From: an uncultured euryarchaeote
Lineage (GTDB): Archaea; Thermoplasmatota; Poseidoniia; Poseidoniales; Poseidoniaceae
Length of the DNA stretch: 64,000 bases
Assembly: GCA_937899865.1 (NCBI GenBank)
Contig: CALBRH010000033.1
Coordinates: 1,873-65,872, forward strand
Reading direction: 5' to 3'
The notes beneath the pieces were generated by a model. It had not been told where the DNA came from. It made no database searches and saw nothing but the letters and a program-made list of their open reading frames with translations. Both the position numbers and the translations under genes were made by a program. Positions 8,980-56,427 of the stretch are shown piece by piece (position 1 is the stretch's first letter; each line of letters begins with the position of its first letter).

Positions 8980-9000
8980 CTACCCAATTGTAGTAATTTT

Positions 9001-12000
9001 ATGGTAGAGAAAAGGGGTTCTAAGAAAGGCGGACCACGCAAGTATTTCTCTACCCTTTACTATTCAAATCAAGAATCAAGAACTTCACTACCAACTGCTG
9101 AGGAGCAAGCAGAATTGGCAAAACTAACAACCGATTATGAGGGTACAAGATATCAAGTTCCGGCTGGTATGCATGATGTTCGAGATGCGAGGAAATTGTT
9201 CAAAGAAATTGATGAAGACTATGATGCTAATGCTGCCAATAAAGATGATATTCGATGGAATAGGGAACATTCCTTAGACAATAAAAATAGTGACTATGAC
9301 TATCGTTTTTGGTTACAATATCAGAGCGAAGAAATCTCTGCAGGCAATCGATCCATGCAATTGATGAAGAGCCGAAGCAAAGAATTTCGAGATGCGATGA
9401 GTAAACTATCAGATTTAACTGTGGAAGTTGCAGAGAATCTATATTCGATGAGTTATGATGTTGTAAATACTGATTCTAAAACATCTAAACTCCACCCACT
9501 TGCACATCTAATTGAGCTAAACAGACTGATGTTGAAAGAATCAAACACTACTACTAAGGGATTGGGTGAGATTATTTTGCAAAGAACAAAAACATGGAGT
9601 TATGTGATGGACATTAATTTCTCGTTTGAAAAAGACAACGGTGGCAAAAACCTCGAGTATCTTAAAGAAAAGCCACTATTTTACCATCTTGCGAACACTA
9701 TGCTACAGGTTTATTTCAAGTCAATCCGCAAATCCACTAAATTGAGAACATTCAAAAATAACGACGAGTTAATCGAAGCACTCAATGAACTTGGTTATGA
9801 AGATACTGAAGGCAAGGCTAAAAAGGAACTTAAACAAGAGTTGAAAGAACAATTATTGATAACAAGCGATAAAGATTTAACCAATAAAAATTACAAAATC
9901 ACATATGTATGTGAAACCAATTCTTTCTTTAGGAAACTTCACAAAAAAATCGGTAAAGTTTTGTCTAAATGGACGGGATATTACACTATATTACCAGGTA
10001 AGAAAGATCCTTTTTTTGAACAGTTAAAGCATGTGTTAGACTATCCAGTAAACGAATTTTTGACAGTTGATTTCATTACTCCTGCGCTGGAAAAGTTCCG
10101 TAGAACGTGCATAAAAACTGCTGCAAGTTGTTTATTTAGCGCACAGCTGGCAGGTTACATCAATTTCGATTCTGCATCAGTAGATGAATTAGATTCTCTT
10201 TACGATTCAGAGTATGAAGGCTCTAATACCTCTTATCCAAATGTGGTTCGAATGTCAAAGAAATTGCTGAATGATTTGAATCAAGGTGACCATGCTATAA
10301 TCAGACATTTCCAGATGGACAGAAAGCGTAACATGTATTGTCTGCCAAAATCGCATGTTAGACAATCAGACGAAGAAAGGCAAAGTTCCGCAAAAAGCAG
10401 TAAGGGCAATGGAGGTTTTTTGCATAATGATAGTATGACTGTATCTATACATCCTGCATTAACCAACCTGATCGAGGAAGGCAGTTTAACTCACACAAGA
10501 TTCGAACCCTCTGAAGATACAATTAATGCTCTAAATATCTTACAAAAAACCCAATGGTCGATAAATTTAGATTTTCTTGATTTCATTGCTTATTTTACCT
10601 ATGAAGGAGAAAAAATTACACCATATCCAGAAGATATTCGCCAAGTTGCCTGGCAACGTTCAGACAATATGATGTTAAGAGATATATTCATTGAAAGAAT
10701 GGGTTTACGGAGTAGCGATACTTCAATGGAATCTCGTTTCCGTGACATTAAATTTATTCTCAAACAAGCAAGAAAAAATCTACTTAATGCAGGCAACATT
10801 TTTTGGCACCCATGGTTTTGTGATTGGCGTGGTAGGTTTAACACTAAAGTAAACGAATTAAGCCCTCAGGGCGACGACCTATCAAAAGCAATGCTATTGT
10901 TTGCTAAATGGAAGCCATTAGGAGAGAGAGGACGATATTGGCTCTATGTAAGAGCATATGAATTATTAAGGAAAATACCTAAAATTAACGATGGCTTTCC
11001 TAAGTTAGATGCATTCGATAGACAAGTCGAGTGGGTTGAGGAAAGGTTAGATAAGATCATAAAGTATGGCAAAAAATTGAATCGAAAAACCTCTGAAATT
11101 GAGCTTGAGAAGTTATTACAGGATTTGAAAGTGGATAAGCCGAAACCAAAGTCGGAAATTTTTCAACGAATTGCATTCCTCATTGAATTTGTCAGAATTC
11201 ACGAAGTTTACGACAAAGAGAAAGATTGGGATAAGGTGAAATCTGGCTTACCTATACACTTGGATGCCTCATGTAATGGCTTTCAGCACATTGCTGCATT
11301 AACCCGATTAACCCGAAATGAAGAATTAGCGGAAGATGAATTAGAAAAAAAAGAAGAATTAGCAAAAGAGGTCAATCTGCTAAACAAAAGTACTCTTGCT
11401 AAAGGAGATTTGTACAAAGAGGTTGCAGTGATTGCAAAGAACAATCTGGATGAAGACTTCGTCGAGGCAAAACAAATCAAAAAACTAATTGATGACCTTG
11501 AGTTGAATGAGAACTCAAGAAACGCCCTAGAGGAAAAAATATTTTCCAGGGAATTCTGCAAACCATTAGTAATTCTTGCAGGATACGGAGCTAGAGATTT
11601 ACATTCAACTATCATGAATTTCAATGGCAAAAAATTACGCGGTGGCAGGTACAAGCCAAAGAAAGGAAGTAAGTCTGAAGTAACATTACACTTAGAATCA
11701 GAATTATATCAAGTAATTGAGGAACTTGCTAAAGAATATCCCGGCGAATTTGACAAATTAGTGTTAAAGAAACAGAATGAGGACAAGGAATATTTAATTC
11801 CAGTAGAAAATTGCAAACTAGCCCACCGCTTTGGCCTAGATTTGTCGCATTATATTCACAAGTGTATAGTCAAAGCAACCCATAATACATTAGGTGAAAT
11901 AAAGGAGAAATTGAAGGAAATATATTCCAATATTGATACACTAGGCATCAAAACTGAAACGGATTTGCAACAATTAGACGCTATGACTCATAAAGGCCTA

Positions 12001-12990
12001 GGTAAACTGTTGCAGAGTAACAATAAGCCATTTAGTAAATTAAACAAAGCGGAAAGGTTAGACTCAGTAAAGGAACTAGTAATTGAAAAATGGAAGAATA
12101 AATTGTATTTCTCTTGGCAAGCCAATGAAACTTCTTCAATAGTTCGTTATATTAAGTGGAAATTGGAAAATGAGCGTGGTATGGCTAAATTGCCAACAGC
12201 AATCCTGCCTAAAGATTACATAGATCCAGGGCCAGAAGAAATCCAAAATTTCATCATTAACAGCCCCGACCTTTCACCCGGTCTTTTGAAAGAATTACTT
12301 GAAGCTCAAGAAAAAGTCCATGAGTCTCGCAAAGAGAAAAAATCTAGTTTAAAATCAAACCCACAGTCTTGGCAGGAAAGAAAATTAACGAGTAGGGTTT
12401 TTATGTGCTTACGCAACATCATATTACGAACTAAAGATGATGAGCATAGAGAGATTGCCAAAAACCATTATTATGCTAGATTTATCGATTTGCCAAAAGG
12501 TCGAATTAAGGAAGGGATTAAGCAGGGCAACCTTTACTCGATAGACACGAGTTACAGTATGAAGTTCAAAACAGATAAGAAAGGTTTGAAGGAGGCAGTC
12601 AACAAATTAAGAGACTTGAGTAGTGATATTGTTTTGGGAATGTTACCTAATTATATCCATTCTTTTGATGCTCTTCACATGCAAAATGTTGTGTTGGAAC
12701 TTGACAAGAAAGGAATACAGGATATTTGGGCGGTTCATGACTCATTTGGTGTTCATGCTTGTGATATCGAGTATTTACGAGATATTGTACGTGAAACTTT
12801 TGTTGAAATTCATCAAGATCCAATTCAGGTTCATTTGAAGCGAATTGTCGAACTGAATAGGTCAATTTTAGAGCCAAAATTTGTCGATAAATACATAGTA
12901 AAAATCGATAAGGAAATTGAGGAAATAAACCGTTCCCCTAATAATGATTGGATAAATAATGTACTGCATTCCAATTACCTAATTTCTTAG
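9001..12990 (+). CDS. T7-like single-subunit DNA-dependent RNA polymerase (~1329 aa)
   Basis: Catalytic and structural motifs align to T7 RNAP. HPWFCDWRGRFN matches T7 YNMDWRGRVY. Motif A is IHLDASCNGFQHIAAL (T7 QDGSCSGIQHFSAM), at 11257-11301. Motif B is REFCKPLVILAGYGA (T7 RSVTKRSVMTLAYGS), at 11548-11592. LPNYIHSFDALHM matches T7 APNFVHSQDGSHL. Motif C is WAVHDSFGVH (T7 LIHDSFGT), at 12727-12756. Start set at M29 (9001) rather than the track start at 8917. Confidence 0.92.
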   Translation: MVEKRGSKKGGPRKYFSTLYYSNQESRTSLPTAEEQAELAKLTTDYEGTRYQVPAGMHDVRDARKLFKEIDEDYDANAANKDDIRWNREHSLDNKNSDYDYRFWLQYQSEEISAGNRSMQLMKSRSKEFRDAMSKLSDLTVEVAENLYSMSYDVVNTDSKTSKLHPLAHLIELNRLMLKESNTTTKGLGEIILQRTKTWSYVMDINFSFEKDNGGKNLEYLKEKPLFYHLANTMLQVYFKSIRKSTKLRTFKNNDELIEALNELGYEDTEGKAKKELKQELKEQLLITSDKDLTNKNYKITYVCETNSFFRKLHKKIGKVLSKWTGYYTILPGKKDPFFEQLKHVLDYPVNEFLTVDFITPALEKFRRTCIKTAASCLFSAQLAGYINFDSASVDELDSLYDSEYEGSNTSYPNVVRMSKKLLNDLNQGDHAIIRHFQMDRKRNMYCLPKSHVRQSDEERQSSAKSSKGNGGFLHNDSMTVSIHPALTNLIEEGSLTHTRFEPSEDTINALNILQKTQWSINLDFLDFIAYFTYEGEKITPYPEDIRQVAWQRSDNMMLRDIFIERMGLRSSDTSMESRFRDIKFILKQARKNLLNAGNIFWHPWFCDWRGRFNTKVNELSPQGDDLSKAMLLFAKWKPLGERGRYWLYVRAYELLRKIPKINDGFPKLDAFDRQVEWVEERLDKIIKYGKKLNRKTSEIELEKLLQDLKVDKPKPKSEIFQRIAFLIEFVRIHEVYDKEKDWDKVKSGLPIHLDASCNGFQHIAALTRLTRNEELAEDELEKKEELAKEVNLLNKSTLAKGDLYKEVAVIAKNNLDEDFVEAKQIKKLIDDLELNENSRNALEEKIFSREFCKPLVILAGYGARDLHSTIMNFNGKKLRGGRYKPKKGSKSEVTLHLESELYQVIEELAKEYPGEFDKLVLKKQNEDKEYLIPVENCKLAHRFGLDLSHYIHKCIVKATHNTLGEIKEKLKEIYSNIDTLGIKTETDLQQLDAMTHKGLGKLLQSNNKPFSKLNKAERLDSVKELVIEKWKNKLYFSWQANETSSIVRYIKWKLENERGMAKLPTAILPKDYIDPGPEEIQNFIINSPDLSPGLLKELLEAQEKVHESRKEKKSSLKSNPQSWQERKLTSRVFMCLRNIILRTKDDEHREIAKNHYYARFIDLPKGRIKEGIKQGNLYSIDTSYSMKFKTDKKGLKEAVNKLRDLSSDIVLGMLPNYIHSFDALHMQNVVLELDKKGIQDIWAVHDSFGVHACDIEYLRDIVRETFVEIHQDPIQVHLKRIVELNRSILEPKFVDKYIVKIDKEIEEINRSPNNDWINNVLHSNYLIS

Positions 12991-12991
12991 T

Positions 12992-13016
12992 CAATTCCTA
13001 TACTATAGGTTAGGAG
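12992..13016 (+). promoter_or_regulatory. Phage-type (T7/SP6/K11-like) promoter candidate P1
   Basis: Sequence caaTTCCTATACTATAGGTTaggag lies 2 nt after the ssRNAP stop and 76 nt before the paralog-1 ATG. It shares the consensus AWTCCYAYACTAKAGGTT with P2 and P3. The core ACTATAGG is identical to the T7 promoter -7..+2. Confidence 0.55.
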
Positions 13017-13091
13017 AAAAATTAGCCGCATAATTTTAGCATAATTTATGCCAAAATAATGGAAAAAATACCCTGCCGAGGAGGTGAAAAA

Positions 13092-14390
13092 ATGAATAGT
13101 ATAACTAAATCAGTAAGTTGTGATAGTTGTGGTAATGACATCACGGTTCTTAATATTGGTAAAGATCCAGAATTACCGTTGTGTTTAATATGCACGCCAT
13201 GGGTGAATAATTCTCTAGACTATAGTCCTCATAAAATCGCAGGCGTAACCATAGATGATTTAGAATTATTCAGGAAATATCGTTCAATTACCAAGGGAAT
13301 TAATATTCCTAATGACGATTATAGTTGGAACTTATTCATCTGTGCGATAGTTAAGGCTAATGGTGATAATAACCTACTTGAAGAGGTACAGCAAGATTAT
13401 CAAACTAGATTAAAAATCCATCCAGAGCTTAGAGATTTCCTGACAATATCCTGGTCTGAAATACCTGAGAATGATGTGCTGAGAAAGACTTATTCTGATG
13501 TTGATATTGTAAATGATATCATCTCGGTATTCAAATCATATGAAATAGAGCAAGAGTATTTGGTAGCATTGTATGAATGTAGCCAGAAATATGAAAAGTA
13601 TCTTTCCACCTTAGGTAAATATGATTCCCAACCGGCAAACAGTTCATATTTTGCAGATTTTGAAACAGCAAAAAAGAATTTAGAAGGGAAATTGTACAAA
13701 ATACAATCGATTACAATTCCTGGCAAAATTATTGGTGATGCGTTGAGAATTGAGACAAACTGTATTTCTCGAGAATTTATTATCCAATTACTATATGATT
13801 ATGTCAAAAGCGACCAATCATACTCGTTCAATGATGCTTTGAATAACGTTACAAAATCAGTCACTTTACTTGACAAACTAATGGATCATCATGCCAATTT
13901 GCCATTCAAAAGATATCCAAACTCGCCTTTGGTTTTGGAAATTCTTAGCAAAATAATCAGTGGAGAGTACTGCAAAAACTCACAATACTCATTATTATCG
14001 GTCATAGCAAATAACAACGATTGTTATGACCAATCATGTAATTACTATCATAGAGATCGTAAAATATGGCAGAAATCATTTCAGTTATTAGAAGGGGTTA
14101 TCAGAACGTTAACAATTTCAAATGTTATAATTTGTAATGATGGACTAAAAGTTAGAGGCAAAAGCGGTAGATGGTATCTAGTGGAGCCAAGAGAAGGTAC
14201 CCCTATTTCCCAAAATGATGACTTTGTTGTAACTACTCTTGATGAAGGAGACAATGTTTGTATTCACATGAGATATCCATTTCGAGATATGCCGCTCGGC
14301 GACCAGTTAGCTTCTCTAGTGATGACTTTGTATAATGACAAAGTATTATTTGATAAAATTGATGTTCGTATTGACCCTTACTACTACTGA
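13092..14390 (+). CDS. Zinc-ribbon protein, island paralog 1 (~432 aa), unknown function
   Basis: N-terminal CDSC...x20...CLIC ribbon. The C-terminal block is shared with paralog 2: SFQLLxGxI, GxSGRWYxxEP, NxxCI, MPxGDQLASxVxTLxND. Start set at 13092, directly after the GGAGGTGA Shine-Dalgarno site. Confidence 0.75.
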   Translation: MNSITKSVSCDSCGNDITVLNIGKDPELPLCLICTPWVNNSLDYSPHKIAGVTIDDLELFRKYRSITKGINIPNDDYSWNLFICAIVKANGDNNLLEEVQQDYQTRLKIHPELRDFLTISWSEIPENDVLRKTYSDVDIVNDIISVFKSYEIEQEYLVALYECSQKYEKYLSTLGKYDSQPANSSYFADFETAKKNLEGKLYKIQSITIPGKIIGDALRIETNCISREFIIQLLYDYVKSDQSYSFNDALNNVTKSVTLLDKLMDHHANLPFKRYPNSPLVLEILSKIISGEYCKNSQYSLLSVIANNNDCYDQSCNYYHRDRKIWQKSFQLLEGVIRTLTISNVIICNDGLKVRGKSGRWYLVEPREGTPISQNDDFVVTTLDEGDNVCIHMRYPFRDMPLGDQLASLVMTLYNDKVLFDKIDVRIDPYYY

Positions 14391-14528: not shown

Positions 14529-14550
14529 CAATTCCCACACTAGAGGTTCG
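14529..14550 (+). promoter_or_regulatory. Phage-type promoter candidate P2
   Basis: Sequence caaTTCCCACACTAGAGGTTcg lies in the 277-nt spacer between the two paralogs. Confidence 0.5.
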
Positions 14551-14641
14551 CCACTACCAATATTTCAACACAACAATGTTCCATGTTCATCTCAACCAAA
14601 TAGCGTTTAGATATACCGCTTGAAAAATATCAAGTGCGGTG

Positions 14642-14664
14642 AAAATCCTACACTAGAGGTTACG
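14642..14664 (+). promoter_or_regulatory. Phage-type promoter candidate P3 (overlaps the paralog-2 Shine-Dalgarno site)
   Basis: Sequence aaaATCCTACACTAGAGGTTacg ends 4 nt before the ATG at 14668. GAGGT could also act as a ribosome-binding site, so the call is ambiguous. Confidence 0.45.
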
Positions 14665-14667
14665 AAA

Positions 14668-15975
14668 ATGTCTGAAAATATTATGAGAACAAATTGTGAA
14701 AGTTGTAAGACCAAACTAGCAACTGTAGATTTATCACAAGAACCCGACTTAATTTTGTGTGAGTTGTGTAAGCCATGGGTATTACATTCAATATATCAAG
14801 TGCCTAAGTCAGTAATTGGTATTGCGATCAAAGATCCTGAAATGTTTAGACATGGTCTAAAATTGATGGAAGGGTTTACCGAACCCGAACATGAGCGTGA
14901 CTGGTTGACTCTTCTGTGTCACATATTTTCAAAAAAAATATACGATGAAGAAACGTACGTGTCGACTTTAGGTACAGACATGGTAAATTCCCTTAGACAA
15001 GACTATGGTAACAGATGGAAGATATACGATGATGAAGCACTTGAGATGTTTGATATGTCCAAAAAAGTGGATTGCATTGAACCCGAAGCACTCGAACATA
15101 TTGAGTTTGAACATTGGGCTAATGATTTAACATTTCATTCAGAGTTTATCTCCGAGATGAAAGAAATACTCACCTTTTACCTAGATAGACGCAAAGAAAA
15201 CCAAGAGCACCAAGATTCACTCAAAGCATCTGGCTGGGGAGACTATGTAAAACTTCTAAACTTCAATGACGATGAACCGAAAATCTACAAAATTAATCAT
15301 CGTTTTGAAATTACGACCGAGCAAATTTACAAGGTTCTAGACTGGGCTGAAAAATATGATATTAGCTACGATTTCGTCCTCCAATTATTCTTTGATTGGG
15401 CGACATCTCATGCTCATAGTACAATCGATGGTTTGTTGTATGAAGCTAATATATATGCGCCTAAAATTCGTTTGGCATCATTCAAACATATGCCCAATTC
15501 GACGGAATTGTGTCGCCAAATTTATTGTTTGGCTAAAGGATATCATGGGCAAAATTTGCAATATCTCATACTTGCAGCAATACATCGATGGGGTCAGCAA
15601 CTATCGCCTTCACACCATTTTCTAGTTAGAGATGAAGAGGTTTGGTCTCGTTCATTTCAACTGCTAAGAGGCATTATTGAATCATTGGGTAGTAAACGAG
15701 CCAGAATTGATGTCGGACTAATCAAAATTAAAGGTGAGAGTGGTAGATGGTATGGAATTGAACCTGCAACATACAAGACAGATCTCCAACATTGGCAGGT
15801 AACTTCACTACCTAAAGGAAATTACATTTGTATTGATATTCAAGAACAGCATCTGAAAATGCCGATTGGTGACCAATTAGCATCAGTAGTTCTTACACTA
15901 GCCAACGACATTCTAATGGAACAAGAAGTACACACTTTACGACCTGAAAATTTTGGAAGAATACTACGACAATGA
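14668..15975 (+). CDS. Zinc-ribbon protein, island paralog 2 (~435 aa), unknown function
   Basis: N-terminal CESC...CELC ribbon and the same C-terminal blocks as paralog 1 (GESGRWYGIEP, GNYICIDIQ, MPIGDQLASVVLTLAND). Start moved from 14620 to M17, because motif P3 lies inside the longer ORF. Confidence 0.75.
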   Translation: MSENIMRTNCESCKTKLATVDLSQEPDLILCELCKPWVLHSIYQVPKSVIGIAIKDPEMFRHGLKLMEGFTEPEHERDWLTLLCHIFSKKIYDEETYVSTLGTDMVNSLRQDYGNRWKIYDDEALEMFDMSKKVDCIEPEALEHIEFEHWANDLTFHSEFISEMKEILTFYLDRRKENQEHQDSLKASGWGDYVKLLNFNDDEPKIYKINHRFEITTEQIYKVLDWAEKYDISYDFVLQLFFDWATSHAHSTIDGLLYEANIYAPKIRLASFKHMPNSTELCRQIYCLAKGYHGQNLQYLILAAIHRWGQQLSPSHHFLVRDEEVWSRSFQLLRGIIESLGSKRARIDVGLIKIKGESGRWYGIEPATYKTDLQHWQVTSLPKGNYICIDIQEQHLKMPIGDQLASVVLTLANDILMEQEVHTLRPENFGRILRQ

Positions 15976-16037: not shown

Positions 16038-16331
16038 ATGGAGGAAAATATAATGAAAAAAATAAGCAAGAAAACAGAGCAAGCAAACCAAGATGAGGGT
16101 AAACTCATCAAAGTAGAAGTGGCTGACCCAGCCCATGGGCATCAAACTTTGATGCTAAAACCTAAGGAGACTCAAGAATATTTGAGCACTCAATCTGACA
16201 AATGGATATTTGTCGACAACGAATTTACTCAAATTGAGAATCTATCCTTGGTCAACTGGAATACCACTGATACTGTTAGAGTCCTGCCAGGTTTAGTTGG
16301 AGGAATGATTAACAATGAGTATCGAAGATAA
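16038..16331 (+). CDS. Ubiquitin-like (ThiS/MoaD/SAMP-type beta-grasp) protein precursor with an internal diglycine
   Basis: The C-terminal region FVDNEFTQIENLSLVNWNTTDTVRVLPGLVGG-MINNEYRR has the ThiS/MoaD pattern (xVNxxxV...DxVxxxPxxxGG). The GG codons are at 16299-16304 and are followed by an 8-residue tail. The ORF overlaps the E1 gene by 17 nt. An alternative start is at 16053, after a GGAGG site. Confidence 0.7.
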   Translation: MEENIMKKISKKTEQANQDEGKLIKVEVADPAHGHQTLMLKPKETQEYLSTQSDKWIFVDNEFTQIENLSLVNWNTTDTVRVLPGLVGGMINNEYRR

Positions 16332-16971
16332 GTCGGACAAAATAAAAATTCTAGTCGTTGGACTTGGTGGCATTGGTTCGCAATTAACTGAATTAATTGT
16401 TCCAGCCTTAGACATAAGCGGCCTTAATGTTGAGTTGAACTTGATGGATGGGGATGTAGTTGAGAATAATAACCTCGCACATCAGAGGTTTTCTAGCGAA
16501 GATGAAAACAGTCCTAAAGTCGAAGTACTTCAGCAAAGGTACCAACGATATGAACACGTTAAGACAATAGCATACAATAACAACTTGACCACACAATCGC
16601 AATTGGAAGGTTATGACATCATCGTTGTTGCAGTCGATCGGCAAGAACCACGTAATCTAGTACACAAGAGTGACGCACACTGGGTAGACATGAGATGTCA
16701 AGGGGATGGTTGGTTACTAATCGATAGCGATACCAACAAAAGCATTCTCGACAAGATTCCCAACAACAAACAACCAGTCGGTTGTCAACTACCTGGCGCT
16801 ATTGAAAGTGGCAACATAGAGTTTGGATTTGCCGCAGTGGCAGCACTTGGTGCTCAGTGGGTTATGCAGAAACTAAGGATAATCAATGGACATCAATCAA
16901 GGACGCCCAAATTCAGCATGGGATATCTAACCCATGGGCAAATGAAGACATCAGTATTGGAGGAGATTTGA
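16315..16971 (+). CDS. Minimal E1-like adenylyltransferase (ThiF/MoeB/UBA family, 218 aa)
   Basis: Rossmann loop ILVVGLGGIGSQL, then MDGDVVENNNLAHQRF (the ThiF xDxDxVxxSNLxRQ motif), then IIVVAVDRQEPRNLV (the Mg/ATP aspartate and arginine). Confidence 0.8.
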   Translation: MSIEDKSDKIKILVVGLGGIGSQLTELIVPALDISGLNVELNLMDGDVVENNNLAHQRFSSEDENSPKVEVLQQRYQRYEHVKTIAYNNNLTTQSQLEGYDIIVVAVDRQEPRNLVHKSDAHWVDMRCQGDGWLLIDSDTNKSILDKIPNNKQPVGCQLPGAIESGNIEFGFAAVAALGAQWVMQKLRIINGHQSRTPKFSMGYLTHGQMKTSVLEEI

Positions 16972-17550
16972 ATGGATATTAACTTCTTCAAAGAAATACC
17001 AGAGCCTGTAATTGACGTCGAATCAGAATCCAGTATAGATTTTGTAATTAATTTGGCAAAAAAATGTAATTGGAATTTGATTTACCTGCTGAGTAAATGT
17101 GTCTCTAGAGAAGTGTCAATACTTGTCGATAGCAAAGACAACTACTTTGTTGATTGGGGGACGATTGGCAGCGTTGAATTAAGTCCACCAGTAGGTGCTG
17201 TATTACCATTCAAACTGTGGGTTCACACCCACCCCTCGAACACAGCTTACTGGAGTATTACCGATCGAAACACCCTTGAGATCGCCAAAGGTATACTCGA
17301 TAAAGCCTTAGTTCTAGGTGAAAACGGTCTACTTTCAACAATACTTCAGCCGATAAGTTCATCCACCGATGACACTGTAAATTCTAATCTACGGTGGACG
17401 GAGGAAGAGGTGATGGATTGGTTGGAATACAATCTAAACCACTTGGATTACGATTTTACAGATGATTTGTATTCTCCAGATTTCAAATTTAGATGGGATG
17501 GAAGGAAAGTATTCACTGATAATTTTGGTAGTGATGGAAAGGATTGGTAA
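16972..17550 (+). CDS. JAB/MPN (JAMM) metalloisopeptidase
   Basis: An exact JAMM signature H-x-H-x7-S-x2-D: VHTHPSNTAYWSITD (17224-17265). Its start abuts the E1 stop (TGAATG). Confidence 0.85.
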   Translation: MDINFFKEIPEPVIDVESESSIDFVINLAKKCNWNLIYLLSKCVSREVSILVDSKDNYFVDWGTIGSVELSPPVGAVLPFKLWVHTHPSNTAYWSITDRNTLEIAKGILDKALVLGENGLLSTILQPISSSTDDTVNSNLRWTEEEVMDWLEYNLNHLDYDFTDDLYSPDFKFRWDGRKVFTDNFGSDGKDW

Positions 17551-17625: not shown

Positions 17626-17859
17626 GTGAGAAAAATGAAAGAAAATAAAGATAACAAAGAAGAAAAAGAAAACAAAAATCATACAGATATGAAAGAATTT
17701 ATGTCAGCTTTGTACAAGTTGATAATTGCTCAAACTGAGAGTTTAGAATTAGAATCCAAATTAAACAAGCAATTCATGAAGGATCGTGGAATTGGTGCTA
17801 AAGCGGAATTTGATTCTAAGCAGGATTGGCCTGATGAATTTTCAGAGGAGTGGGGCTAA
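17626..17859 (+). CDS. Small acidic helical protein (74-77 aa), unknown function
   Basis: The ORF has a GGTGAG Shine-Dalgarno site, then a GTG at 17626 or an ATG at 17635. It has a K/E/N-rich N-terminus. No motif recognised. Confidence 0.4.
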   Translation: MRKMKENKDNKEEKENKNHTDMKEFMSALYKLIIAQTESLELESKLNKQFMKDRGIGAKAEFDSKQDWPDEFSEEWG

Positions 17860-17950: not shown

Positions 17951-19348
17951 ATGAGTAAAGAAGAAGAAACAAATGGAATAATAGAGCAAAGAGAAGGTGA
18001 GGAAAACAACGATACTAAATTCACAATCAACAGTCCGATTGGAGACGTTTCAGTCGATATGCTAGAGTATGAGGCAGCAAAGAAAATTGCGAAAAAGCAG
18101 GTTAATCCACCAGAATTAAGTCTACTAACCCAAAAGGCACAGAAGTTCCTTGGTGGGCAAGAAGAAACCGATTTTATATATTTTAGACCGAGATTAGGTT
18201 CTCTAATCAAACTACACATTGATGACGAGTTCGATGACTATGAGGTAGTGAAAGAATTTTATTTACACGGTGGCATAGAAATACCCGCCATTTATTCAAA
18301 CACTGAAGTTGATAATTCTGAAAAGAAAAGATTCCTCCAAATAGGTGTTAGATTTTATGAAAACGAAACGGAGAAATTTGTTGTTGTATGTACAGTGGAT
18401 GATTATGACAACGATGAGCGAATCACTATTATGACAACAGAAGAGGGTAGAGGATTGGAACTTCTCCAAAGACTTGAGGATGGTTTCTATGCCAGAGGTG
18501 TACTAAAGAATGCCTTCTTTGATATGGAATACAATTTTATTTCAAGAAATGAAATGGTTGATACCTTGATTGCTTGGAATGACGATATCAAAAAGCAACT
18601 CGATAAGGATGTCATAGAGTTCTTGAAAATAATGCCGCTGCTAAAACAAAAAGGGCTGCCTAATTCACGTGGAATTATCTTGTCAGGTCCACCAGGTACA
18701 GGAAAGACAATGATGGCTAAATCACTGGCTGCTCAAGCAAATGTCACAACCATACTAATTTCAGCTGAGATGATTCAGGGGCCTAGTCAAGTCAAAAGGG
18801 CGTTCAAATTAGGTAGAAAGTTAGCGCCGACCTTGATGATTATCGAAGATATAGATACTGCAGGAACGGTAAGTCGAAGATTTACCGATCACCCAATTTT
18901 GGGTGAGTATCTTCAAGCAATGGATGGCATGGAATCCAATGATGGTATGCTGATTTTAGCAACCACCAACCACACTGAGAACATTGACCCAGCGATTTCT
19001 GACCGACCAGGTAGATTTGACAGGATTATCGATGTTCCACTACCAAACGTCAAGCAGAGAGAACTTATGATACAGAATTTGCTTACCAATATGCCATCTG
19101 AAGATATGCCCAAATCGGTTATTTCTGAAGTCGCTAAGAAGAGTGAAGGTTTGTCTGGTGCTTGGCTGCGAGAAGTAATCCAATGTTCACTGATAGAGGC
19201 TATCTATGAGGGTAAGGAGCAGATAGGCGTCAAGAATCTTGAGGATGGGCTTGTCGATGTTCTAAAGCGAAGAGGCATGGCTTATCAACCAACACCAAAT
19301 CTAGCAGGATTATATGACTCAAGGAAAGCCGACGTCTACACTATGTGA
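17951..19348 (+). CDS. Classic-clade AAA ATPase (Cdc48/FtsH/proteasomal-ATPase-like single AAA module) with a unique ~230-aa N-domain
   Basis: Walker A is GPPGTGKT (18686-18709). Walker B is LMIIEDID. Sensor 1 is ATTN. The second region of homology and Arg finger are DPAISDRPGRFDR. Confidence 0.9.
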   Translation: MSKEEETNGIIEQREGEENNDTKFTINSPIGDVSVDMLEYEAAKKIAKKQVNPPELSLLTQKAQKFLGGQEETDFIYFRPRLGSLIKLHIDDEFDDYEVVKEFYLHGGIEIPAIYSNTEVDNSEKKRFLQIGVRFYENETEKFVVVCTVDDYDNDERITIMTTEEGRGLELLQRLEDGFYARGVLKNAFFDMEYNFISRNEMVDTLIAWNDDIKKQLDKDVIEFLKIMPLLKQKGLPNSRGIILSGPPGTGKTMMAKSLAAQANVTTILISAEMIQGPSQVKRAFKLGRKLAPTLMIIEDIDTAGTVSRRFTDHPILGEYLQAMDGMESNDGMLILATTNHTENIDPAISDRPGRFDRIIDVPLPNVKQRELMIQNLLTNMPSEDMPKSVISEVAKKSEGLSGAWLREVIQCSLIEAIYEGKEQIGVKNLEDGLVDVLKRRGMAYQPTPNLAGLYDSRKADVYTM

Positions 19349-19423: not shown

Positions 19424-19990
19424 CTAACTTCTACTGGTTTTGTGAAGCCAAACCAACTCAACTAACCTAGCAAGACAAGGCGCCCACATGCGCTTAAAAA
19501 CCAAATGATTGACAAGTCCGGATTCTATGGATATTAGTTCCTGTTTTAGCTCATTTATCGCAAGTGATAAATTCGGCATTACTAAGGTAATATCCTGCTT
19601 TTTACCAGATTTGTAATCTATATTTTGCAACAATATCTGGCATAATTTACTATATTCCATATTGAATAATAGCATAATTTCACGGCGTAACAGGTGCCTA
19701 ATTCCACTAGCAGGGCGACCTCGAGACTTATCTCGTCTGCCATGGGGGCCAGTTTTACTCAAGATAGCATTTACAACTTCTCGATCTAATCTCAATGTAT
19801 GCCTATTATTATGCTTAATTGATTCCCATAATTTAGTGTGTACTAAACCGAGATGACCTTTGCTTTGCTTAACATAATTGAGCCTTTTTTCAGGCATATC
19901 AGAATCGTCAAAAATTAACCTGTGTTGCACGATTCTAAGGTCGGCAAGAATAGGTTTGAGGTCCATGTTATAACGTATTGGTGGCCACAA
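19424..19990 (-). CDS. Basic hypothetical protein (188 aa), the only minus-strand gene in the island
   Basis: An ORF with Arg/Lys/His-rich stretches (GPHGRRDKSRGRPASGIRHLLRRE). No motif recognised. It is divergent from the 20162 operon. Confidence 0.5.
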   Translation of the reverse strand: MWPPIRYNMDLKPILADLRIVQHRLIFDDSDMPEKRLNYVKQSKGHLGLVHTKLWESIKHNNRHTLRLDREVVNAILSKTGPHGRRDKSRGRPASGIRHLLRREIMLLFNMEYSKLCQILLQNIDYKSGKKQDITLVMPNLSLAINELKQELISIESGLVNHLVFKRMWAPCLARLVELVWLHKTSRS

Positions 19991-20748: not shown

Positions 20749-21071
20749 TGTGGGTATTTACCTCAACAGGTATGCTTTCTGTTGTTGCTCATAGGGATCT
20801 GAAAGGGTCCTTACTTGTTAGAGCTAGAAGTCCTTTCCACATTCGGGAAATGTTTCCATACGCTGCAGTAGAGCAGACTCCTAATGCTGACTATCCATTT
20901 AGGGCAATAATTGAGCGTGAAACATTTGCTAATGTCATGTTAGACTACTCACTTAACATTGACTATGACAATTTCAAGAATAGTATTGAGGAAAAGAACT
21001 TCCAAGAACACTGTCTTGAGGTTTGGGCAACCATGCGCCGATATGGCTTAAACTGGGGGAGTTTTGAATGA
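20748..21071 (+). CDS. Hypothetical protein (107 aa)
   Basis: Start moved to MWVFTSTGMLSVVAHRD..., which couples to the small-ORF stop. The stop overlaps the next start at 21068. Confidence 0.55.
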   Translation: MWVFTSTGMLSVVAHRDLKGSLLVRARSPFHIREMFPYAAVEQTPNADYPFRAIIERETFANVMLDYSLNIDYDNFKNSIEEKNFQEHCLEVWATMRRYGLNWGSFE

Positions 21072-21691
21072 GCAGAAATTATCGTAATAGTCGTTCTCAT
21101 AAACTGAAAATAACCTGGATACCAATATGGTACGACAAGAAGACTGCAGGTCATATTGGGATGACATTTTGCCCTGGTAAAGTCCAGCCTTGGTCAATGA
21201 CCGGTGGATGGCATAGAGATCTTGATTTGGACATTAGAGAACTGAAGAAGGCTAATGTTGGTCATGTAATTTCACTGATTACTAAGGATGAAATGGAAGA
21301 GTTAAGAGTCAAAAATTTGGGTAAAAAATTACAATCCAATCGTATAGAATGGTATCATGCACCAACTCCGGATGAAGAAGTTCCAGATAACATGTGGTTT
21401 ATCAGATCATTATCGATAATAAAACAGGTTATGCCAAATTTCTACAGAGGCAAACGCGTTGTTGTTCACTGTAAAGGTGGAATAAGTCGAGCAGGTGTCT
21501 TTACTTGTATTGTAATATGGTTGTTGTCAGGATTTGATATGACTAGCGCAATTTCAATGGTAAGAGAAATGCGGGACCCTCGCGGCATAAATGAAGGCCA
21601 AGAGCAGTTTTTACTTGATTATGAGAAAAATTGGCAGACTTGGATTCAAAATAACACCGTAGCTGATGAATGGTTGGAGGAGATGGCATGA
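21068..21691 (+). CDS. Cys-based dual-specificity/tyrosine protein phosphatase
   Basis: P-loop VVHCKGGISRAG (the HCx5R signature, ~21466-21495), with an upstream PTPDEEVP general-acid region. Confidence 0.8.
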   Translation: MSRNYRNSRSHKLKITWIPIWYDKKTAGHIGMTFCPGKVQPWSMTGGWHRDLDLDIRELKKANVGHVISLITKDEMEELRVKNLGKKLQSNRIEWYHAPTPDEEVPDNMWFIRSLSIIKQVMPNFYRGKRVVVHCKGGISRAGVFTCIVIWLLSGFDMTSAISMVREMRDPRGINEGQEQFLLDYEKNWQTWIQNNTVADEWLEEMA

Positions 21692-22524
21692 GGGATATAG
21701 AATTAGAAATGAAATTACAGAAATCATTGAATGAAGGCAACAATGTATGGGTTGTTGGCGATGTTCATGGGTTTAATCTAACACTAAGGGAACTTGTTTC
21801 AAAACTTGAAATAAAGACAGGTGATTATGTTGTGTTACTTGGAGATTTGATTGACCGTGGACCTGATTCATATGATGTAATTCAATTTGTCAAGAACTCG
21901 CCAAACATGACTACAGTAAAGGGCAATCATGAGAAAATGATGGCGAAAGTATTCTCAGTTTCTCGTCTTGAGAAACCAGACTTACGTATTTCAACATGGT
22001 TCTATAATGGCGGCTTAGCAACTGCAACATCTTACATCAATGCATATACTGATTCTAGTGGCAATGAGAATACACAAGAACTTCATCAAGCGATTGAGCG
22101 AGATAAATTGTGGATCGAACAATTACCGAGTCAAATTGTGTTAGATGATTGGCGACTGGTCCATGCAGGATATGATCCAAACGTGGATTTAGATTGTCAT
22201 ACAGACAGTGAATTGTTACATGTTAGGAAACCCTTCCATCGAGCAAAAGAGCCAATAGACATACATCGAACAATACTTTTTGGCCATTCAATTACCATAA
22301 CTTTACCTGGAATGAGTAAAGAAAATTGGGGCGATCCATGGTTTTCATCAATTAGGTTGGAAGATGGTAGACCTGCTGCAATAGGGCTAGACACTTGCGT
22401 GTTTCATACTGCAGACAGTCCAGCAATGCTGACGGCTTACAATTTGCAAGATGGCAGGTTTGTTCAGCAACTCAGAGTTGAACCATGGAATAAGCGAGCA
22501 ATAAACAAAGCAAATAATGTATAG
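21688..22524 (+). CDS. PPP-family metallophosphoesterase (lambda-phosphatase / PrpA / ApaH-like Ser/Thr phosphatase)
   Basis: Motifs GDVHG, GDLIDRGPDS, GNHE, HAG and GH occur in canonical order. Start set at the ATGA overlap with the upstream stop. Confidence 0.85.
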   Translation: MRDIELEMKLQKSLNEGNNVWVVGDVHGFNLTLRELVSKLEIKTGDYVVLLGDLIDRGPDSYDVIQFVKNSPNMTTVKGNHEKMMAKVFSVSRLEKPDLRISTWFYNGGLATATSYINAYTDSSGNENTQELHQAIERDKLWIEQLPSQIVLDDWRLVHAGYDPNVDLDCHTDSELLHVRKPFHRAKEPIDIHRTILFGHSITITLPGMSKENWGDPWFSSIRLEDGRPAAIGLDTCVFHTADSPAMLTAYNLQDGRFVQQLRVEPWNKRAINKANNV

Positions 22525-23162: not shown

Positions 23163-24287
23163 ATGAGCATTGAAGTGCATATTTTGGGGACCTCTTCGGC
23201 ACGCCCAACAAGCATTCGCCAAGTTAGCGGCAGTTTGATTTCTTGCCAAGATGGTATCGCGATAGTTGATGCTGGAGAAGGTTTTCAATCAAGATTCGCA
23301 ATTCAAAGAAAGCGCATGAAAACCTATGAAACATATAACTTGAAATCAAGTAAAGTTAGCGTATTATGTTTGACACATGGCCATCTAGATCATACTTGGG
23401 GTGTTCTTCCATGGTTACAATCAATGGCATTAGACAATCGTAATCAACCATTGTTAGTTCTTGGCCCAACAACTAATGAGGTAATCGATTCCTTGCTTGA
23501 AAATCAATCTTTACCAGATGAAACCCCTGCTTCAGACTTGGCAGTTCAATACCAATTCTGGCACAAACTTGGCGGAATATCAAGTAACCTTGGCTATCCT
23601 GTAAAATGGGTATTGGGTGCGGTAAATGAGGGGCGCTGGATTGAATTTACTGATAGTGGCGAGGTAATTGAGTTGTCAGAGATGCCTCAGCCGGAAGGTT
23701 GGCGACATAATAGAATTGAAGCACTGCCTACTATTCACACAATTCCATCTTGTGCTTGGAAACTTTCCACAGCAAAGAAAAAAGGTAAATTCAATCGTCA
23801 AAGAGCAATAGAACTTGGGTTGAGTGAAGATGAAACTGCGACTCTTGCTGCTGGTAAAGATCTACAACATAAGGGAGATTTATTGCTAAGTAAGGATTTC
23901 CGAGGTAGTGAAATCGAATCACTTTCTATCATAATTTCAGGTGATACATCTGAGATGGCACCAGGAATCACGTCATTGGATGGATGCGATTTGTTAGTTC
24001 ATGAAGCCACGTTCCTTGATGATTTTAGTCAACATGCAGATGATTACCTCCATAGCACCGCATCGGGTGCAGCTCGTACTGCTATTGCTTGTGGAGCCAA
24101 ACATTTGGTTTTGACACATTATGGTGCGAGAATAAAACAAACAGATGAATCATTGAATGAAGCAAAAGTAGTGCTGGCAGATTCACAAACTACTCTAAGT
24201 GCTGCATGTGATGGAGATCGAATACTAATCGAGAACCCCAATGAAATAACTCATCTATATTGGCGTAATGATGGTTGGATTCGTTGA
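23163..24287 (+). CDS. rnz: Metallo-beta-lactamase-fold ribonuclease, RNase Z-like
   Basis: Motifs ILGTSSARPT, DAGEG, LTHGHLDHTWG, SGDT, LVHEATF, HST and LVLTHY. It carries an insertion relative to short RNase Z. Probably housekeeping. Confidence 0.75.
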   Translation: MSIEVHILGTSSARPTSIRQVSGSLISCQDGIAIVDAGEGFQSRFAIQRKRMKTYETYNLKSSKVSVLCLTHGHLDHTWGVLPWLQSMALDNRNQPLLVLGPTTNEVIDSLLENQSLPDETPASDLAVQYQFWHKLGGISSNLGYPVKWVLGAVNEGRWIEFTDSGEVIELSEMPQPEGWRHNRIEALPTIHTIPSCAWKLSTAKKKGKFNRQRAIELGLSEDETATLAAGKDLQHKGDLLLSKDFRGSEIESLSIIISGDTSEMAPGITSLDGCDLLVHEATFLDDFSQHADDYLHSTASGAARTAIACGAKHLVLTHYGARIKQTDESLNEAKVVLADSQTTLSAACDGDRILIENPNEITHLYWRNDGWIR

Positions 24288-24333
24288 TTCATCAAAGCGT
24301 TCATTTGAAGTGTATGGCACACTACAGCGAGTT

Positions 24334-26820: not shown

Positions 26821-26893
26821 ACAGTCTATTGTTTCGGTCTTTGAATAAACTTATAGGCGATAGTTTATCGTAGTTTGAAGATGACCAAATGAT

Positions 26894-31555: not shown

Positions 31556-31559
31556 TATT

Positions 31560-32159
31560 ATGGTTGAAGAGGAAAATGGTGTCATTGTTAATGATGAGGG
31601 AGAACTCCTCATACATGAGGACACTATTGTAGAAACAACTCAAATGTCTGCTGAAGATTTGGCAATTCTCCAAGCATCAAAAGACGCTGCGGAATTTGTT
31701 AAAGAATTACAGAAAGAAATAACTCCAAATCGAGTTGCAACAGCTGGCCTAATTCTTCTATTGTTAATGGGAGCAATCTTCTGTACTTGGTATTGGGTGA
31801 TTCCGAGAGATTCAGTGATGGTAGAAACATTGTACATGCAAAGAAGTGGGCATTTGGTTATGTCAGAAATTCATAATACAGGTAGTAGAGAAATTACTGA
31901 TGTTGAAATTCAGGTGTCTTTCCAATCTTTGGATGGAGAAGTCCTCGAAACAATGGGTATCGAAGTAGAATCTATTTCCGCGCACTCTTCAATAGCGGGT
32001 GATGATTTAGAAATGTTAATTGCCGGTTATACAGTTTGGGATAATTATGTCATTGCTATCGACTTAAAATATACTGATCATCGTGGTGATTTACAAATCA
32101 TGTTGGTAACTCATGAAGTAGGTGATTGGGCTTGGGAAGAGTTCAATGATAGAAATTGA
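31560..32159 (+). CDS. Single-pass membrane protein
   Basis: Start moved to the ATG 5 nt after the upstream stop. TM helix ATAGLILLLLMGAIFCTWYWVI. Confidence 0.5.
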   Translation: MVEEENGVIVNDEGELLIHEDTIVETTQMSAEDLAILQASKDAAEFVKELQKEITPNRVATAGLILLLLMGAIFCTWYWVIPRDSVMVETLYMQRSGHLVMSEIHNTGSREITDVEIQVSFQSLDGEVLETMGIEVESISAHSSIAGDDLEMLIAGYTVWDNYVIAIDLKYTDHRGDLQIMLVTHEVGDWAWEEFNDRN

Positions 32160-32215
32160 GCAAATTCTCACACAATACCCCAAGCAATAAAACGCACCGG
32201 AACTAGGACTTAATT

Positions 32216-36805: not shown

Positions 36806-36874
36806 TTATTTTTTGTTAAAATAACATAAACATGAAAGGATAGGCTTTTGATACTAAGTCGTTCACCCCTAAAC

Positions 36875-56260: not shown

Positions 56261-56427
56261 GTTAACTTCACATTGGCCGTAAGCCTTGAATGCTACCCTT
56301 GTTTATTGGTAATTCTACTAATTGGAAGATAAATCGACGTGGCCGAGTTAATTCAACGCGCAATATATTGATATTTTGCTTGTATTAGAGATGGGTTCAA
56401 GTGCTTCATCATTAGTCCATAGAACTG

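Follow-up and report, generated by a model that had tools for sequence, protein, structure and literature searches.

A candidate ubiquitin-like protein-conjugation system encoded beside a T7-like RNA polymerase gene in Poseidoniales archaea

Gene cluster and its host

The window analyzed here is a stretch of 64,000 nt from contig CALBRH010000033.1 (positions 1,873 to 65,872; assembly GCA_937899865.1), and the subject of this work is a gene cluster within it. The cluster encodes a divergent T7-like single-subunit RNA polymerase (RNAP), two paralogous zinc-ribbon proteins (ZnA and ZnB) with a candidate E2 domain, a ubiquitin-like protein (Ubl) precursor, a minimal E1-like protein (E1) and a predicted JAMM metallopeptidase (JAB). 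A previous sequence-only reading of the window had described the last three open reading frames (ORFs) as a compact Ubl–E1–JAB cassette, located in an accessory island and acting in protein tagging. The three ORFs were present exactly as described with respect to coordinates, lengths, the overlap of Ubl and E1, and the abutment of JAB. The cassette is not compact, however, as it belongs to a larger conserved cluster that includes the candidate E2. Table 1 summarizes the features.

Table 1. Features of the gene cluster in the window and of the related phage cassettes
Feature	Position (nt)	Strand	Remarks
Divergent T7-like single-subunit RNAP	8917-12990	+	1357 aa; ORF listed from TTG, true start may be further downstream
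Promoter-like motif, copy 1, AATTCCTATACTATAGGTT	12993-13011	+	3 nt after the RNAP stop, 48 nt 5' of the ZnA ATG
ZnA	13059-14390	+	N-terminal CxxC..CxxC zinc ribbon, helical middle, E2-like C-terminal domain; paralogue of ZnB, 28% identity
Promoter-like motif, copy 2, AATTCCCACACTAGAGGTT	14530-14548	+	ZnA-ZnB intergenic
ZnB	14620-15975	+	Zinc ribbon C26/C29/C47/C50, helical region, candidate UBC/E2-like C-terminal domain (~335-440)
Promoter-like motif, copy 3, AAATCCTACACTAGAGGTT	14643-14661	+	6 nt 5' of ATG 14668, the probable ZnB start
Ubl precursor	16038-16331	+	97 aa, ends VRVLPGLVGG-MINNEYRR
Ubl beta-grasp core	16098-16304	+	Residues ~21-89, AlphaFold2 model
Ubl GG codons, GGAGGA	16299-16304	+	
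Ubl 8-residue tail	16305-16328	+	
E1, single adenylation domain	16315-16971	+	218 aa; 17-nt overlap with the Ubl ORF
JAB, JAMM/MPN+ metallopeptidase	16972-17550	+	192 aa; begins at the base after the E1 stop
Small acidic protein	17626-17859	+	77 aa; no family match; between JAB and the AAA ATPase, kept in MGIIa-type loci
AAA+ ATPase, classical Cdc48/VAT/PAN/FtsH clade	17951-19348	+	One AAA domain and a unique N-terminal region
Phage cassettes	L031 6183-10579; L032 6361-10618		Order: protein with E2-like C-terminus, Ubl, then JAB and E1

The window belongs to a chromosome of Candidatus Poseidoniales (Marine Group II archaea, MGII), and its E1 was 100% identical to a protein from a Candidatus Poseidoniales metagenome-assembled genome. 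Since the window also carries Entner–Doudoroff genes, a Nuo operon, eIF-1A, a RIO kinase and large S8/CARDB surface proteins, the chromosome is archaeal. The ORFs scanned against Pfam numbered 44 and comprised nearly every non-nested ORF of at least 110 aa in the window. No molybdopterin or thiamine (Moa/Thi) genes were found among them, in agreement with the sequence-only reading, and genes for MoaE, ThiG, NcsA or cysteine synthase were likewise absent from this set.

The cassette was kept in 21 fetched Poseidoniales loci (given L numbers below) and in approximately 147 protein clusters, and is thereby confirmed not to be a chance feature. Literature searches on Poseidoniales or MGII combined with ubiquitin, T7-like RNAP, DUF7737, or Ubl with single-subunit RNAP yielded no description of the cluster. 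The RING and UCH genes that a 2014 survey lists for a single-cell genome of MGII are unrelated to it.

Ubl precursor and its predicted C-terminal processing

The Ubl was modeled with AlphaFold2 (AF2) from an alignment of 20 sequences, and the model showed a beta-grasp fold with the element order b-b-a-b-b-a-b, as had been expected from the sequence. Residues 21–87 mostly reached a pLDDT of at least 90, with block means of 90–94 up to residue 80, while residues 88–97 were disordered. When this model was compared with the PDB using Foldseek, all of the top 50 matches were ubiquitin, SUMO, ISG15 or FAT10 (50/50), with probabilities of 0.77–0.99 and modest E values of ~6e-3 to 3e-2. No match to the Ubl sequence was obtained in Pfam, NCBIfam or PADLOC scans. 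Public gene callers begin the protein at M6, giving 92 aa. On the basis of the predicted fold, the small ORF has the features of a ubiquitin-like beta-grasp modifier, with a GG end after predicted maturation.

The sequence-only reading had also held that the Ubl is a precursor whose tail must be removed to expose the diglycine, and the comparison of orthologues bore this out. The segment PGLVGG was kept in all Poseidoniales orthologues compared (21 loci) and both glycines were invariant, whereas the residues beyond GG were unconserved and varied in length from 3 to ~40. In L014 and L015, one ORF encodes two head-to-tail Ubl units (LVGG/AKLIRIEI...) followed by a domain of ~310 aa (Ubl-Ubl-X), which is a weak relative of the ZnB C-terminal module. 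In L016, L017, L020 and L021, the order Ubl-Ubl-E1 is encoded as one ORF. As the GG is internal in both kinds of ORF, a free GG terminus there needs endoproteolysis, and C-terminal processing of the Ubl precursor is supported by these sequences.

The tandem units of L014 (8544-9995) and L015 (8586-9995) are protein-identical, save for the last residue in L015, yet differ at 4 and 13 of 204 nucleotides, and the species-specific amino-acid changes are common to both units. This is the pattern of polyubiquitin genes, and the repeats are under strong purifying selection. The glycine codons GGAGGA of the Ubl in the window form a perfect Shine–Dalgarno-like sequence 10 nt 5' of the overlapping E1 start (16315). 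Therefore, the 8-residue tail may partly be a by-product of translational coupling.

E1 and the question of sulfur transfer

The E1 passed the Pfam ThiF model PF00899 with 59 bits against a cut-off of 28.1 (E 5e-16). Its key residues are G16–G21, D45, N53, Q57, K68 and D108, and the nucleotide-binding residues were invariant in the orthologue alignment. The invariance of G16–G21, D45, K68 and D108 gives it the GxGxxG motif and the Mg-binding Asp of the E1/ThiF superfamily. The E1 profile matched MccB, Uba1, ThiF, Uba6, SAE2, NAE and MoeB in the PDB via the Rossmann half, and hhalign aligned the whole domain with MoeB/ThiF at 96.7% probability. PADLOC E1–E2 models matched the protein only up to about residue 116, at 1e-7. 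In all ~147 clusters, the E1 remained a single domain or was fused to Ubls only.

The protein holds only two cysteines, C128 and C157, and has neither CxxC pairs nor a rhodanese domain, which agrees with the earlier description of a minimal ThiF-type E1 without such extras. Of the two, only C157 (CQL), predicted to fall within the crossover loop, is also kept in the phage E1s described below, where C128 is Ser. Two other assignments were tried and rejected. PRTRC ThiF, the best NCBIfam match, was not accepted with 48.8 bits against a cut-off of 144.75. MccB-like peptide adenylation was suggested by the best PDB match; that match spans the shared Rossmann half only, and the partner here is a folded, GG-ended Ubl.

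The location of a JAB gene beside Ubl and E1 genes does not by itself exclude sulfur chemistry, as shown by CysO/Mec+-type operons (PMC1779556). In one alternative, the E1 would thiocarboxylate the Ubl for cofactor, tRNA or metabolite thiolation, and JAB would only trim this carrier, similar to operons of the CysO/Mec+ or PdtFGH type. In sulfur metabolism, carriers of the ThiS/MoaD type are known to have E1 and JAB neighbors (rows 4a–4e, PMC1779556), and the E1 here is small and ThiF-like. However, compared with the NCBIfam equivalog cut-offs, the E1 scored 48.2 against 159 and 36.2 against 275 bits for ThiF, 26.1 against 376 for MoeB, and 26.5 against 450 for UbaA; overall, it reached 26–48 bits where cut-offs of 152–450 apply. 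By its sequence, the E1 is therefore outside ThiF/MoeB/UbaA equivalog membership, and it also lacks the CxxC...CxxC Zn site, the rhodanese domain, and MoaE, ThiG or NcsA partners among the scanned ORFs. The sequence-only reading had likewise kept it apart from sulfur-carrier activators. Furthermore, the structural neighbors of the Ubl are ubiquitin and SUMO, and poly-Ubl ORFs, Ubl–E2-like fusions, a Cdc48-like ATPase and phage relatives do not fit a biosynthetic pathway. A sulfur-carrier role is thus improbable. Because Moa/Thi genes are missing from the scanned ORFs, the E1 is far below the equivalog cut-offs, a candidate E2 has an invariant Cys and a Cdc48-like ATPase lies nearby, the system probably acts in tagging, and the earlier preference for tagging over sulfur transfer gains support.

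Predicted JAB peptidase

The JAB protein carries the motif WVHTHPSNTAYWSITD (HTHPSNTAYWSITD), which reads HxHx7SxxD. The residues E47, H85, H87, S95 and D98 were invariant in 12 JAB orthologues with 31–79% identity, so that the sequence has the JAMM zinc-site motif noted previously. All 12 members (12/12) weakly matched the Pfam family Prok-JAB, with a best E value of 0.0018. The top matches of the JAB family profile in the PDB were AMSH-type JAMM deubiquitinases, aligned at the motif (E 0.04). Moreover, the positional equivalents of JAB in the phage cassettes are clear Prok-JAB members (4e-15 and 8e-10), which adds to the case for a JAMM peptidase.

Candidate E2 domain of ZnA and ZnB

ZnB probably starts at ATG 14668; its closest orthologue, P0209, has 435 aa according to public gene calls. 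The N-terminal CxxC..CxxC ribbon is invariant in the ZnA/ZnB family, and the alignments of the C-terminal module showed an invariant Cys404 (GNYICIDIQ), P415, D418 and D430. In a word-indexed search, the family was found only in Poseidoniales, in 52 clusters that carry no Pfam domain. An exhaustive profile search extended the E2-like module to 206 cluster representatives with varied architectures; the Cys was present in 8/8 distant members inspected. The Pfam scan of ten distant members detected no domain, and annotation in the family was limited to weak DUF7737 matches in phage members.

The AF2 model of ZnB (pLDDT 79.6, pTM 0.75) contained a helix at 339–356, four strands, a Cys loop and a helix at 416–428. 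This predicted topology, a1-b1-4-Cys loop-a2, is that of a UBC domain lacking its final two helices, a truncation also present in the Cap2 E2 and in BubB (PMC11601596). When the ZnB domain was aligned by hhalign with six eukaryotic E2s, Cys404 was placed on the catalytic Cys (score 26.1, P 8e-4), with Cys-to-Pro and Cys-to-Asp spacings equal to those of the E2s. Block-shuffled controls scored 18.4 ± 2.4, and none of the 60 reached 26.1. The ZnB domain has no HPN motif. Against the BFVD, the only confident Foldseek neighbors of the ZnB model were the unnamed viral proteins A0A516M0H5 (441 aa) and A0A516MG04 (452 aa), with probabilities of 0.99–1.00 and E values of ~5e-3.

Other results speak against the E2 assignment. 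ZnA and ZnB gave no usable match in Pfam, NCBIfam or PADLOC and matched no E2 model, including UQ_con, while the search of the E2-like domain profile against PDB sequences returned noise only. The hhalign probability of the ZnB–E2 match was 24%. Foldseek found no significant match of the full-length ZnB model in the PDB (best E 0.6), and UbcH7, UbcH5c and FANCL appeared only at E values of 1.2–4.1, the E2 matches among them at 2.6–4.1 with probabilities of 0.05–0.15. Because the topology and hhalign favor an E2 and Foldseek and the library scans do not, the assignment of the ZnA/ZnB C-terminal domain as E2-like is held as a supported hypothesis, which appears fairly likely from the alignments and the predicted model.

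The corresponding alternative is an E2-independent system, in which E1 alone conjugates the JAB-matured Ubl and ZnA/ZnB serve as targets, adaptors or transcription factors of the RNAP. The archaeal SAMP/UbaA system functions without an E2 and provides a precedent. In addition, L016 and L018 hold E1 and JAB without a nearby ZnB-family gene, the fold similarity of ZnB to E2s was not significant with Foldseek, and ZnB has an N-terminal zinc ribbon, with one cluster protein weakly matching the TFIIB ribbon. On the other hand, the motif Cys did not vary in the alignments, and all distant members inspected have it, ribbon-less phage proteins among them. It was also set on the E2 catalytic Cys by hhalign, the predicted topology of ZnB is UBC-like, and the Ubl is fused to an E2-like domain in L014/L015, as in BubAB, a Ubl–E2 fusion cleaved by its JAB (PMC11601596). 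Thus, the E2-independent explanation is considered unlikely.

T7-like RNA polymerase and promoter-like motifs

The RNAP matched the Pfam family RNA_pol (PF00940) with 137.9 bits against a cut-off of 22 (E 5.8e-40) and was 24–32% identical to Autographiviridae RNAPs over about half its length. Its translation contains DASCNGFQH, KPLVILAGYG and HDSFG, which correspond to motifs A, B and C of the T7 enzyme. With PF00940 and these motifs, its sequence places it among T7-like single-subunit RNAPs. In most loci, the protein has 1.3–1.36 kaa and a long N-terminal extension, and in 13 of the 14 loci whose upstream sequence was long enough to judge, the gene was located 5' of the cassette. Searches for publications on single-subunit RNAPs in Poseidoniales returned none. 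The RNAP is chromosomal and appears vertically inherited in this archaeal order.

A 19-nt motif, AAWTCCYAYACTAKAGGTT, occurs in three copies in the window, always on the + strand (Table 1). Its core CACTAtAGG is that of the T7, T3 and SP6 promoters. Orthologous copies with 0–3 mismatches were found 3–6 nt after the RNAP stop and just 5' of ZnB in L003–L007, L009, L012 and L019 (positions 7499 and 7706 in L003; 898 and 1092 in L007; 5624 in L009; 8329 in L012; 4117 in L019), and the RNAPs of these loci are only 46–56% identical. Divergent lineages possess their own repeated + strand motif at the same intergenic positions. The repeated motif of L014/L015, GCGCCACATAACACATA.., is present in three and five copies, respectively, and that of L020, GGGTTAA..AGGGCAAG, lies 5' of a Zn-ribbon gene and, in a looser form (6 mismatches in 22), 5' of the Ubl-Ubl-E1 gene. 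From these sequence patterns, the RNAP probably transcribes the E2-like, Ubl, E1 and JAB genes from T7-like promoters. A scan for sigma-70 promoters and intrinsic terminators was uninformative, which is to be expected with an archaeal host.

Conservation in Poseidoniales and sister cassettes in jumbo phages

The component proteins of the cluster diverge to 40–56% identity across Poseidoniales, and in MGIIb-like loci the cluster occupies one conserved chromosomal site. L016, L018 and L020 have a glycosyltransferase-like gene as a common flank, and L016 and L020 additionally share a Tyw1-like gene. Because of this fixed site and the divergence across the order, the label of an accessory island, as used in the sequence-only reading, is doubtful. 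Two cluster-bearing public records, L013 and P0193, are labeled with Bacteroidota names (Crocinitomicaceae bacterium and Saprospiraceae bacterium, respectively), and their contigs are probably mis-binned.

When 2.9 million viral contigs were searched with the E1 profile, no close relative was detected. The same search revealed two IMG/VR jumbo-phage contigs, L031 (210 kb) and L032 (207 kb), with full-length E1s of 27–32% identity. The first protein of these phage cassettes has 734 or 769 aa, and its C-terminus aligns to the ZnB module with the invariant G, V, C-I, D and D (blastp 5.8e-4; HMM rank just under the family). The phage proteins keep the Cys without a zinc ribbon, and the E2-like gene is directly 5' of the Ubl gene in both Poseidoniales and the jumbo phages. 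The Ubl of L031 ends in LYGG-K, and that of L032 is a Ubl-LKGG fused to a domain of ~200 aa. Aligned by hhalign, the Poseidoniales and phage Ubls matched end to end with 80% probability and GG on GG. The genes near the phage cassettes include a sigma-70-like factor and PolA in L031 and a metallophosphatase in L032.

These results also bear on a further alternative, namely that a virus or plasmid once integrated here and left a decaying or selfish remnant, whose RNAP and cargo are of no more use to the archaeon. In favor of it, the polymerase is phage-like, jumbo phages carry the closest cassette outside Poseidoniales, and L016 and L018 lack parts of the cluster. In addition, the GC content is somewhat lower across 7–16 kb (0.33–0.37) than in the window on average (~0.40). 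Nevertheless, the ORFs are intact, and catalytic motifs are invariant in orthologues of 31–98% identity. The MGIIb loci have common chromosomal flanks, the Ubl repeats are under strong purifying selection, and close relatives were missing from the viral contigs searched. Moreover, the scanned ORFs yielded no integrase, and the window contained no tRNA. A remnant is therefore very improbable.

Neighboring genes

Downstream of JAB, the small acidic protein is rich in Lys and Glu at its N-terminus and both acidic and aromatic at its C-terminus (DWPDEFSEEWG). The subsequent AAA+ ATPase matched Pfam AAA (2e-23) and PADLOC IetA (8e-25), and its best PDB matches were VAT, Cdc48 and p97 at ~1e-50, while the NCBIfam matches to FtsH, PAN and CDC48 were below the cut-offs. 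It lies next to the cassette in L001–L003, L005, L007, L010 and L011 and is a candidate unfoldase for conjugates.

Further downstream, a 188-aa protein (19424-19990, - strand) without a Pfam match was 88–92% identical between loci whose E1s are only ~66% identical, and it appears unusually constrained. In L003, L009 and L019, synteny with the cluster extends to the genes of a dual-specificity protein phosphatase and a calcineurin-like metallophosphatase, located at 21068-22524 in the window. Very large secreted or surface proteins of 850–1553 aa with PKD, subtilase S8, CARDB and NEW3 domains are encoded at 24268-39898 and 54449-59217. A 398-aa protein (59923-61119, - strand) has a C-terminal Cas4/PD-(D/E)XK nuclease domain, and no CRISPR array was noted nearby.

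Proposed mechanism

With moderate confidence, the cluster is interpreted as a ubiquitin-like protein-conjugation system of Poseidoniales with four functional parts (Ubl, E1, E2-like protein and JAB) instead of three. From the gene order, conservation, motifs, predicted folds, fusions and promoter-like motif, we infer the following steps. The JAMM peptidase would cut the Ubl precursor right after Gly89 and remove MINNEYRR; in other lineages, it would free Ubl units from Ubl-Ubl-X or Ubl-Ubl-E1 polyproteins. The minimal ThiF-like E1, probably a homodimer, would adenylate the exposed glycine and may then hold the Ubl as a thioester on Cys157. The E2-like domains would then receive the Ubl, on Cys404 in ZnB and on the corresponding Cys in ZnA. 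The N-terminal zinc ribbon and the helical region of ZnA/ZnB may select the targets, with modification on lysine, and the JAMM enzyme would probably remove the tag too. The Cdc48/PAN-like AAA ATPase, encoded two genes downstream, would probably unfold or extract tagged proteins. Together, the genes of the E2-like proteins, Ubl, E1 and JAB would form an orthogonally expressed module of likely viral ancestry.

Several observations weigh against this interpretation. L016 holds an intact Ubl-Ubl-E1 and JAB (9449-11235) with the same flanking genes as L020, and neither an RNAP nor an E2-like gene was found within 10 kb. L018 has E1 and JAB alone (3272-4467), without a detectable Ubl and without a nearby ZnB-family gene. 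As both loci keep E1 and JAB in the absence of partner genes, the E2-like and Ubl partners may be encoded elsewhere, or the core may act without them and the E2 may not be obligatory. Linkage of the AAA ATPase is not universal, as L009, L019 and the MGIIb-type loci have no such gene beside the cassette. The equivalence of C157 with MoeB C187 is ambiguous in the profile alignment, and the promoter function of the 19-nt motif is supported by sequence resemblance and conservation only. With regard to JAB, the Poseidoniales profile aligned weakly with the phage JABs outside the motif (P 0.006). The JAB in the window scored 12.4 bits against Pfam Prok-JAB, below the threshold of 25.

Comparison with known systems

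The closest known system is Type I Bub (6E.1). Still, the cluster does not show the features that define Bub, Bil, Cap2/Cap3, SAMP/UbaA or the eukaryote-like ubiquitin operons of archaea; for Bil, the definition was taken from PMC11601596. Similar to Type I Bub (PMC11601596; row 6e, PMC1779556), the cluster has a single-domain ThiF/UBA5-like E1, Ubls of 1–3 beta-grasp domains, a JAB predicted to mature the Ubl by a cut after a conserved Gly, and a predicted truncated UBC fold that misses the last two helices. A Ubl–E2 fused precursor is also shared, here in L014 and L015 only. Unlike in Type I Bub, JAB and E1 are encoded separately here instead of being joined as in BubCD, the Ser of BubB is replaced by an invariant Cys in the E2-like domain, and the E1 has a conserved Cys in the crossover region (C157) that BubCD lacks. 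Furthermore, the DUF6527 protein (BubE) was not found among the scanned neighbors, the E2-like domain comes from another, unannotated family that bears a zinc ribbon at the N-terminus, and the genes are coupled to a T7-like RNAP in an archaeal host.

The Bil system (BilABCD, PMC10557695) comprises the same four roles (Ubl, E2, JAB and E1), has no E3, and its JAB also pre-processes the Ubl C-terminus. However, the E1 here is a single adenylation domain of 218 aa, compared with the large IAD-AAD-CYS E1 of Bil, and the PADLOC scans gave no match to the ISG15-like/Bil-type model. In CBASS Cap2/Cap3, an E1–E2 fusion acts on the CD-NTase C-terminus and no free Ubl exists, in contrast to the free Ubl of this cluster; no CD-NTase was found among the scanned window ORFs.

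The SAMP/UbaA/HvJAMM1 system resembles the cluster in being archaeal and in having a beta-grasp modifier with GG, a ThiF-type E1 and a JAMM protease. UbaA, in contrast, is MoeB-like with a CxxC Zn site and also takes part in sulfur transfer, while the E1 here has no CxxC and reaches 26.5 of 450 bits. SAMP systems have no E2, and the SAMP genes are not known to be organized as a single cassette. In the ubiquitin operons of Caldiarchaeum and Asgard archaea (PMC6043591, PMC5654768), a JAMM protein (Rpn11) similarly removes a C-terminal extension before the E1 and E2 steps. Those operons, however, encode ubiquitin proper, together with an E1 of the UBA1 type, a canonical UBC E2 and a RING E3. Pfam recognizes all of these, and no protein here matches the respective models.

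Eukaryotic polyubiquitin and ubiquitin-fusion genes share with the cluster the head-to-tail units, in which GG is followed by the next unit, the protein identity with differing synonymous sites, and the fusion to unrelated proteins. The cluster differs in its unrelated sequence family, in the predicted processing by JAMM instead of the cysteine proteases UCH/USP, and in its fusion partners, which are its own E1 or E2-like protein. Finally, Autographiviridae modules share the PF00940 RNAP with motifs A, B and C and a CACTAtAGG element directly 3' of the polymerase gene; in T7, promoters lie downstream of gene 1. Unlike in Autographiviridae, the RNAP here is chromosomal and has a long N-terminal extension, and its cargo is a Ubl system in place of phage replication or structural genes.

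Implications

A broader reading is put forward tentatively, at somewhat less than even probability. The cluster may be a vertically inherited module of viral ancestry, in which a T7-like RNAP with its own promoters expresses a complete Ubl conjugation system. That system would combine a minimal E1 and a Cys-dependent E2 family not recognized before with a JAMM maturase, a Cdc48-like unfoldase and a precursor that is either tailed or polyubiquitin-like. The module would act as an orthogonal tagging or degradation switch, for example in antiviral defense when host transcription is compromised, and the jumbo phages would use a sister version. Our guess is that its role lies in virus–host conflict or in stress-triggered proteolysis. 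The proteins are short and have a defined cleavage site, and together with two candidate catalytic cysteines and a 19-nt promoter-like motif, they provide testable reagents.

Prokaryotic Ubl conjugation has so far been shown in bacterial immune operons (Bil, Bub and CBASS) and in a few archaeal systems (SAMP and Caldiarchaeum/Asgard). If the interpretation is true, an order-wide Ubl system would exist in one of the dominant archaeal groups of the ocean, together with a new candidate E2 family of ~200 clusters that is essentially unannotated. Natural polyubiquitin-like and Ubl–E1 polyprotein precursors would then occur outside eukaryotes. Moreover, as far as the searches show, this would be the first phage-type RNAP with cognate promoters fixed in an archaeal chromosome and tied to protein tagging.

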